NCBI GenBank assembly: GCA_964016885.1
Contig: OZ024757.1
Location: 1,612,001-1,676,000, forward strand
Length of the DNA stretch: 64,000 nt
Reading direction: 5' to 3'
DNA from: Eledone cirrhosa
Taxonomy: Eukaryota
Below, piece by piece: positions 4,922-6,620 of this stretch. Every line of letters starts with the position of its first letter. The stretch's first letter is position 1. Made by a program: the position numbers and the translations under genes. The notes under the pieces were generated by a model. It saw only the letters and a program-made list of their open reading frames with translations, was not told the DNA's origin and did no database searches.

Positions 4922-6620
4922 GCAAAAGTTTTATTTAAAATTGTTGGGTTACAACAAGTAAATATTTTATAACTGATATAAAGCACTCGACAAGTTTTTG
5001 GAGTAGATATATGATATTAAACAAATGGAAACTATATTTATAAAACCATATTTATTTCATTATACATATTTCAGGGATACCATATTAAAAATATGGCATG
5101 CCTTCGTCAGATAAAATACAATATATAAACAGTTTTATAAATAATTTTGACGTACCATAATATAAGCGACCATTAAATTAGGAGGCTGCCTTGGTAGTGA
5201 TGTGTTTATAATTATTTAGTTATAGTGTTAAGCACAGTTAGAAAAAAGACGGAGAAAAAGAAGAAACGGAGGTAAAGAAAAACAGAGAGAGAGAGGGGAG
5301 AGAGAAAAAAGGAGGAGGTGAAAAAAGAGGCAACCGAAAGCAACAGATAAATAATAATAATTCACCATACAAATAGAGAGATTCAAGAGAGAGGGAGTAC
5401 TATATAGAGAGAGAGGACAGTAATTATTTAGTTATTTAGTTATTTTTTTCTTTATCTCGTTCTTTCTCCAACCGTGCCTAACACCACAACCAAACAATTA
5501 CTGTCCTCTCTCTCCATACAGCACTCCCTCTCTCCTGAATCTCTCCATTTGTATGGTGAATTATTATCACTTATCTGTTGCTTTCGGTTGCCTCTTTTTT
5601 CACCTCCTCCCCCCCTTCTCTCTCCCCTCCCTCTCTCTGTTCTTCAATGTGGTATCCCTGAAATATGCATAATGAAATAGGTATGGTTTTGTAAATATGG
5701 TTTCCATTTGTTTAATATCGTATATCTGCTCCAGGGGCTTGTCGAGTGCTTTATATCAGTTGTAAAGTATTTGCTTGTTGTAGCCCAACAAAATAAAGAT
5801 TTTGCATATAATTATATATATATATATATATATACACATATATATACATATACATATACATATATATATATATACATATATATATATATATACATATATA
5901 TATATATATATATACATATGTATATATATACATATACATATATATATATGCAAGGGTTTTATTTGAAATTGTTGGGTTGCAACAAGTAAATGTTTTGTAG
6001 CTGATATGAGGCACTCGACAAGTTTTTGGAGTAGATATGCGATATTGAACAAATGGAAACTATATTTGTGAAACCATATTTGTTTCATTATGCATATTTC
6101 AGGGATACCACATTGAAGAACAGAGAGAGGGAGGGGAGAGAGAAGGGGGGGAGGAGGTGAAAAAAGAGGCAACCGAAAGCAACAGATAAGTGATAATAAT
6201 TCACCATACAAATGGAGAGATTCAGGAGAGAGGGAGTGCTGTATGGAGAGAGAGGACAGTAATTGTTTGGTTGTGGTGTTAGGCACGGTTGGAGAAAGAA
6301 CGAGATAAAGAAAAAAATAACTAAATAACTAAATAATTACTGTCCTCTCTCTCTATATAGTACTCCCTCTCTCTTGAATCTCTCTATTTGTATGGTGAAT
6401 TATTATTATTTATCTGTTGCTTTCGGTTGCCTCTTTTTTCACCTCCTCCTTTTTTTTCTCTCCCCTCTCTCTCTCTGTTTTTCTTTACCTCCGTTTCTTC
6501 TTTTTCTCCGTCTTTTTTCTAACTGTGCTTAACACTATAACTAAATAATTATAAACACATCACTACCAAGGCAGCCTCCTAATTTAATGGTTGCTTATAT
6601 TATGGTACGTCAAAATTATT
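4922..6620. mobile_element. Hammerhead-bearing (Penelope-like/retrozyme-type) element rearranged into a nested palindrome, with an A>G hypermutated core
   Basis: 5140-5810 is the inverted repeat of 5950-6620 (centre ~5880, in a TA tract). Related family copies lie at 16467-16616/17618-17690 and 30925-31162. Confidence 0.75.
5053..5118 (-). ncRNA. Minimal type I hammerhead ribozyme
   Basis: Minus strand reads tattttat-CTGACGA-aggcatgccatat(tttta)atatggtatccct-GAAA-tatgta-TA-atgaaata. Stems I and II pair and stem III is short and quasi-palindromic. Confidence 0.8.

Follow-up and report, generated by a model that had tools for sequence, protein, structure and literature searches.

An inverted Penelope-like insertion with A>G marks in Eledone cirrhosa: a candidate product of one RNA copied twice

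In LINE-1 twin priming, each of the two target ends primes a cDNA on a single RNA, and the cDNAs join by homology, which gives a 5′ inversion. Penelope-like elements (PLEs) also carry inverted ends, and the origin of their inverted pLTRs and tails has been named an open question (PMC8557442). In vitro, two start sites for the reverse transcriptase (RT) bound the tail, on both DNA strands, and the RT works mainly on uncut RNA (PMC11167929). That study, carried out with PAc (Poseidon, Anolis), found no RNA-seq ends at the ribozyme cut. In vitro, the cleavage activity of metazoan PLE hammerheads is weak (PMC4209133).

We report here on a PLE insertion found in a stretch of 64,000 nucleotides (hereafter the window) of the Eledone cirrhosa genome, whose size is 3.0 Gb. 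The insertion combines a long mirror with clustered A>G changes. Its features are listed in Table 1, where element positions are counted along the minus strand, position 1 being window 5139 and the predicted hammerhead cut falling after 79.

Structure of the insertion and point of the switch

Alignment showed 5140-5677 and 6083-6620 of the window to be reverse complements except for 2 mismatches, a slightly longer mirror than the 5140-5668 initially annotated. Both mismatches (5168/6592 and 5304/6456) are C>T changes of the right arm. From 5678 onwards, strand-specific changes separate the two arms. Differences between arms were polarised by column counts over 95 alignments to 47 other loci, and 5649/6111, 5720/6040 and 5614, being family variants, were not counted as edits. 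The change c5668 (G6092 on the right arm) is private, with C in 0 of 72 copies and T in 71. This makes it a genuine copied mark and rules out a common family variant, and it is indeed the last copied mark, as had been proposed. The first uncopied mark is at 5678, where G6082 (in element sense, T in 72 of 72 copies) has no counterpart. The switch therefore took place within 5669-5677, an interval which does bracket the predicted cut at 5671/5672, placed by homology to the intact hammerhead motif. It represents 10 of the 168 possible switch points of the homologous stretch, that is 6% by chance. Base-by-base assignment of the variants to an arm, which the initial annotation had suggested, separated a copied from an uncopied set. 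The letter at 5668 that gives the loop its palindromic look is itself an edit, and the intact loop is that of 5053-5118 (minus strand).

The left arm runs without a scar into the pLTR and tail of 4921-5139, through the intact ribozyme, and the right arm halts at element position 0, where it abuts a 5′-truncated repeat. Inside the mirror, segments B and C face one another over a (TA)n spacer. Within copy A, 4925-5135 matches a copy from another contig with 100% identity. The earlier view that the left arm had copied an edited arm plus unedited flank holds for the edited arm; 5140-5445 and 6315-6620 are element body and not host flank. A genome search for the private junctions of the copied arm returned no locus besides the present one, so that the source locus was not found. 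The repeat of the right flank (6621-6680), which we take to be a SINE, lacks its 5′ part, and this suggests from the sequence a deletion at the right junction. When a second haplotype or an empty site of this flank was looked for, only the locus itself matched at full length among 40 scored candidates.

Table 1. Features of the insertion and its borders, in window coordinates (element positions in brackets)
Feature	Position	Strand	Remarks
(TA)n-type array, putative target priming the tail-end cDNA	4349-4920	.	Family tails nearly always abut (TA)n
Copy A, unedited pLTR and tail (1-219)	4921-5139	-	Without private marks
Intact type I hammerhead motif	5053-5118	-	Predicted cut between 5061 and 5060
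Unedited element body adjoining copy A	5140-5445	-	Mirrors 6315-6620; alignment, polarised differences
Copied edited arm, reverse complement of 6089-6314	5446-5671	+	Holds both private junctions and, as T>C, 21 marks
Switch interval, where copied gives way to independently edited sequence	5669-5677	+	Predicted cut 5671/5672 inside
Segment B, sense pLTR and tail (80-219)	5672-5806	+	14 own A>G; putative 5′ part of the template RNA
(TA)n-type spacer, forming the B/C RNA hairpin loop	5807-5948	.	Sequence, fold
Segment C, antisense pLTR and tail (219 to 51)	5949-6117	-	16 A>G on plus strand; 6092 and 6115 copied to left arm
Antisense element body past an internal deletion (51 to -137)	6115-6318	-	A>G up to 6291; inversion centre near 6316
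Unedited sense body	6315-6620	+	Ends at element position 0, usual end 136
Right flank, a SINE-like repeat of which the 3′ piece is present and the 5′ part missing	6621-6680	+	Other copies extend upstream

Other repeats of the window were recorded in passing. Inverted copies, about 98% identical, of a LINE-like element of about 6 kb lie at 8.5-14.2 kb (minus strand) and 24.0-29.7 kb (plus strand); by eye, they hold ORF1, endonuclease-like and RT-like ORFs, and each is flanked by a satellite of about 70 bp, which suggests that this element is target-specific. A tandem satellite of about 119 bp occupies 3000-3955, the 3′ end of a high-copy repeat, in which three C2H2-like zinc-finger motifs were recognised by eye (copies 91-96% identical genome-wide), lies at 6887-7377, a 7-kb A/C-only simple repeat at 41.4-48.3 kb and a 4.5-kb (TA)n-rich block at 57.0-61.6 kb.

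The element family and its hammerhead motif

The element is an endonuclease-bearing PLE, and the insertion is young. A 34-letter pattern of the family had at least 10,911 matches in the genome. The truncated copy at the locus has no ORF; same-strand ORF pieces were found upstream of the pLTR in L117 (whose body is 96% identical to the present copy), L118 and L119. These RT and GIY-YIG-like pieces are 44% and 34% identical to the ORF of L115, and among Atlas look-alikes RVT_1 and GIY-YIG occur on 21-49% of members, so that an RT and a GIY-YIG endonuclease ORF in one element are present by way of relatives. A direct Pfam scan of the ORF pieces gave 0 hits for 4, and a PDB search gave 0. The GIY-YIG is C-terminal, as in canonical endonuclease-bearing PLEs, and a cysteine-rich linker points to a putative Neptune/Nematis type. 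The family has a pLTR with an optional tail and two discrete 3′ ends: of 312 alignment ends, 121 fall at 136 and 137 at 212-219, in line with the two RT start sites that flank the tail in vitro (PMC11167929). It also has inverted 5′-truncated heads, with 99 head-to-head pairs of a 136 end and a tail end among the fetched loci. The L115 ORF itself (1163-2548, minus strand) is a second, divergent Penelope-like ORF (34-44% identical to the pieces of the present family) and adjoins a pLTR copy of the present family. Older copies of the same or a related Penelope-like family, 74-85% identical, are present in the window at 30907-31158 (plus strand), 16480-16614 and 17611-17686 (both minus strand).

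The ribozyme proposed at 5053-5118 proved a plausible predicted hammerhead. Direct reading and folding gave a stem I of 8 bp, the CUGACGA core, a long stem II, GAAA and a stem III of 2 bp, that is the CUGANGA and GAAA core, NUH site and three stems of type I. The fold is kept across 22 variants, in which 94.6% of 499 hammerhead cells are paired, against 31-55% for slid partners, and all four bases occur at core position N7. Double-sided pair changes are few (2 pairs, one sequence each), and covariation support is weak for that reason. An Rfam scan of the region returned no hammerhead match at gathering or E-value thresholds; its miRNA-like matches were rejected, as they reflect the hairpins. 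With a stem III of only 2 bp, predicted cleavage would probably need a dimer (PMC4209133). In the fold, stem I is prolonged as a long imperfect duplex (about -3..29 with 80..107), which may itself draw editing. A tandem duplication of 13-14 nt over stem III and the cut site, at a 7-nt direct repeat, recurs in L088, L094, L102, L125, L135, L137 and L155, and some edits in other loci strike the ribozyme GAAA (70, 71), which would inactivate it.

A>G marks and inversion breaks here and across the family

The locus carries 49 private A>G changes, all on the plus strand. Fourteen are found in 5680-5798 only, which bears out the claim that the left arm has its own edits beyond about 5678, 14 in 5954-6082 only, and 21 in 6092-6291, these last recurring as T>C in the left arm. 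The exceptions among private changes are one C>A and one short deletion, both in B. G>A decay in the other copies as the source of these differences was excluded by the column counts. The edited fraction depends on the 5′ neighbour: 25/58 after U (0.43), 18/73 after A (0.25), 2/37 after G (0.05) and 0/26 after C, the depletion for G being significant (Fisher p = 0.004). This profile agrees with what we take to be the ADAR preference. In the sense body (6325-6490) 0 of 25 A are edited, whereas the edited part has 45 edited A out of 194 (p = 0.001), and the marks extend to 6291, past the reach of pairing with the downstream sense arm. From these two facts we infer that the antisense part had as its pairing partner a sense sequence, since lost, that lay upstream of B. 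The changes are thus A>G, clustered, on one strand, polarised relative to other copies, placed in paired regions and with few G or C as 5′ neighbours; they are likely to be ADAR-type RNA editing fixed in DNA. The edited RNA intermediate of the initial annotation is supported by these private, strand-specific marks.

Four edit patterns, all demanding marks at 72-107, retrieved 26 other loci, at least 18 of which are clearly hyper-edited, and no such edit clusters were seen in 346 alignments from loci not chosen for edits. Positions 88 and 89 are often edited among the loci L210-L244. In 14 of the 18 other hyper-edited loci, marks are present on both sides of the cut within one arm, which indicates an uncut template RNA. 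The same holds for all three other tail-to-tail read-through loci (L220, L222 and L224). L222, on another contig, repeats the full architecture with normal ends at 136 and 215; it joins near 49-51, and its B is edited at 54, 71 and 73. Sense marks at 80 or later only were found in L216, L225, L233 and L235.

Thirteen edited arm pairs were compared. Seven have strand-specific marks, as hairpin RNAs predict, and six share A>G marks, with 41 marks common to head and main copy and 3 discordant (L214, L216, L225, L230, L235 and L238). Edited copies are so rare that such agreement is unlikely to come from two independent RNAs, and the shared edits of these six loci suggest two cDNAs made off one RNA molecule. 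Among 22 pattern matches, the patterns of L214, L225, L230, L235 and L238 were absent from separate loci of the same subfamily: L226 is a local duplicate of L225, and L214 and L235 have the 34-mer in common but differ in subfamily.

A break at the cut nucleotide, which had been expected of other inverted copies, is not a property of the family. In the 99 head-to-head pairs the longer arm starts at -80 to -30 in 51 cases, versus 2 at 73-90; in unselected pairs it starts at -80 to -30 in 18 of 32. Most loci were taken as 3-kb windows, hence long pairs are under-counted. Of the 27 inversion junctions seen in copies chosen because they break in 67-80, 3 are at 79-80. These copies (L085-L179, 94 of 911 genome matches, all from one contig) have non-internal junctions in 81 of 94 cases, compared to 9 of 24 (313 matches genome-wide) for the control interval 95-108, counts that are unnormalised for anchor frequency, with some of the 81 being older-subfamily variants. 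The junctions within 67-80 are evenly spread except for a pile at the edge, 67. A targeted search for a second locus with the present switch gave 0 of 6 non-self matches; L246 and L247 fit the switch pattern, carry isolated changes only, and were rejected. All-against-all mapping of 5′ ends was given up as too noisy, since inversions match each other. Family inversions are not made at the ribozyme cut, and the idea that the locus records how PLEs make inverted duplications through that cut is not supported, as the family breaks elsewhere and 14 of the 18 edited loci come from uncut RNA. The hot spot at -80 to -30 may be the pLTR transcription start or an RT stop. In the older subfamily, several centres recur at one short palindrome (L130, L211, L230, L246, L247).

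Origin of the mirror and comparison with known systems

On balance, we consider it probable that the insertion was made by copying one ADAR-hyperedited read-through RNA twice, into two joined cDNAs. A source locus with tail-to-tail copies would have produced a plus-strand RNA made of B, (TA)n, antisense C and body, sense body, pLTR and tail. Its antisense part would have paired with an upstream sense copy and been edited, the downstream sense copy staying unpaired and unedited. One cDNA would have been primed at the tail (219) and extended at least into C; the other, primed from the other target end, would have extended to about 5672, and its 3′ end would have annealed to the homologous C copy of the first, fill-in then fixing the mirror. 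In the predicted cDNA fold, the 3′ end pairs in register on the C copy (z = -17.6). Reading one stretch twice implies that the RNA survives the first pass, and to our knowledge PLE RTs have no RNase H. The second cDNA may have stopped at 5672 because an upstream hammerhead had cut the RNA there, ribozyme cleavage setting the RNA 5′ end at this locus; we give this step chances slightly below even. Two cDNAs are favoured by the extra 5′ stretch being carried by either arm (in 32 unselected pairs, by the tail arm in 9, the 136 arm in 8, 15 being undecided) together with the RT starts at both tail boundaries in vitro (PMC11167929). Against them, the assembly has no source locus with the private junctions, and the right end is at 0 instead of 136, which calls for either a deletion or an atypical start.

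Simple self-priming of a cDNA, as initially annotated, fails: if primed at 6620 and folded on itself, the cDNA cannot template 4921-5139, and if primed at 4921, it leaves T>C and not A>G on the plus strand in the loop, so that a second cDNA or a nick-and-flip is needed. What stands of the proposed ribozyme cut and snap-back is a left arm copied from cDNA and a switch covering the cut. The amended version, in which a single tail-primed cDNA runs to the RNA 5′ end, folds on its own C copy and extends, a nick and strand displacement then flipping the loop, would yield a product identical to that of two joined cDNAs and explains the shared edits too. Its cDNA is predicted to fold with the 3′ end paired, and many family centres are tight (loops of at most 5 nt in 15 of 96 pairs and at most 60 nt in 51 of 96). 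We nevertheless hold it rather unlikely, as it requires a nick at a fixed DNA position and has to accommodate loops of up to 2.9 kb, both ends act as RT start sites in vitro (PMC11167929), and the loop, predicted to be always on the tail-less arm, is on the tail arm in 9 of 17 decided unselected pairs. Alternatively, the shared marks could stem from edits already in the DNA of a lost source copy, the mirror being produced in a second step by later transposition, or by gene conversion or fold-back duplication involving the two arms. In favour of such a DNA-level origin count the proneness of long palindromes to conversion and the fact that source loci may be absent from one assembly, that of the present locus included. 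It is improbable given the lack, among the 22 matches, of same-subfamily loci with the patterns of the five loci named above, and a product with the family's standard transposition geometry. As to an assembly artefact from fold-back or chimeric long reads, assemblers struggle with inverted PLE structures (PMC8557442), and in sequencing runs screened for the stretch 0 of 24 rows reached half of its words (best share 0.17, probably from the (TA)n part). The loop arms differ however at 28 strand-specific marks and the outer arms at 2 sites, the flanks are unrelated, and L222 shares the design on another contig, which makes an artefact very improbable.

The doubt about the cut concerns the end of the second cDNA alone and fits either way of joining. 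We find it marginally probable that the RNA was uncut and that the switch came near the ribozyme site by coincidence. There is no hot spot at the cut in the family, 14 of 18 other hyper-edited loci and all three other tail-to-tail templates were uncut, L222 joins near 49-51 and has the edited B described above, junctions in 67-80 are even apart from the edge pile, and four tail-to-tail loci would give one 6% match about 22% of the time. Coincidence has to contend with the narrowness of the interval (10 of 168 points), with the four loci with sense marks at 80 or later only, with junctions being commoner in 67-80 than in the control, in unnormalised counts, and with the possibility that this RNA, which would hold two same-sense ribozymes, could form the dimer such motifs need (PMC4209133). 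Combining the interval (likelihood ratio of about 8-17) with a prior of 0.05-0.1 drawn from the family data gives 0.3-0.65 for the cut, the priors being a matter of judgement.

Edited insertions provide a per-molecule label without experiment, usable in any animal with strong ADAR activity, and this barcode makes the preferred reading of one RNA and two cDNAs directly testable. Six loci of one genome suggest that both arms came from the same RNA, and 14 of 18 loci show that copied templates usually carry an uncut ribozyme. RNA editing would have been written back into the germ-line genome and, if the cut set the end here, the locus would supply evidence, of a rare kind, that PLE hammerheads act in vivo. 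The full statement, that edits act as molecular barcodes showing PLE inverted ends to come from one RNA reverse-transcribed twice from two target ends, with in addition an in vivo hammerhead cut on the template at this locus, is tentative and, taken whole, unlikely. In a literature with few subscription papers, we found no paper joining PLEs with ADAR editing or with snap-back.

LINE-1 twin priming shares with our proposal the two target ends, the single RNA and the join by homology, and differs in that L1 cDNAs cover different RNA parts, whereas here they overlap over hundreds of bases, so that one RNA stretch would be read twice. Canonical PLEs have the same RT then GIY-YIG-like ORF upstream of the pLTR, pLTR hammerhead, inverted 5′-truncated heads, optional tail and (TA)n targets; their tail is of 30-40 nt, compared to 83 nt here (PMC8557442). 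The present insertion departs from them in its tail-to-tail read-through RNA, in A>G hyper-editing kept in DNA and in a non-canonical right end. PAc has the same two RT start sites bounding the tail, and in vitro both DNA strands are cut and extended, with uncut RNA as the main substrate; in its available portion, the study does not address a single-RNA origin of both cDNAs or the joining of arms (Frangieh et al. 2024, PMC11167929). APOBEC-edited retroelements likewise have deaminase marks of the replication cycle fixed in genomic copies, theirs being G>A DNA editing in vertebrate LTR elements, as opposed to A>G on one RNA strand and in paired regions only (PMC4866542). Finally, non-LTR retrozymes carry a type I hammerhead of PLE origin and form head-to-tail tandem units, whereas the present locus holds the 3′ end of a PLE as an inverted insertion (bioRxiv 10.64898/2026.07.22.740005; PMC4209133).
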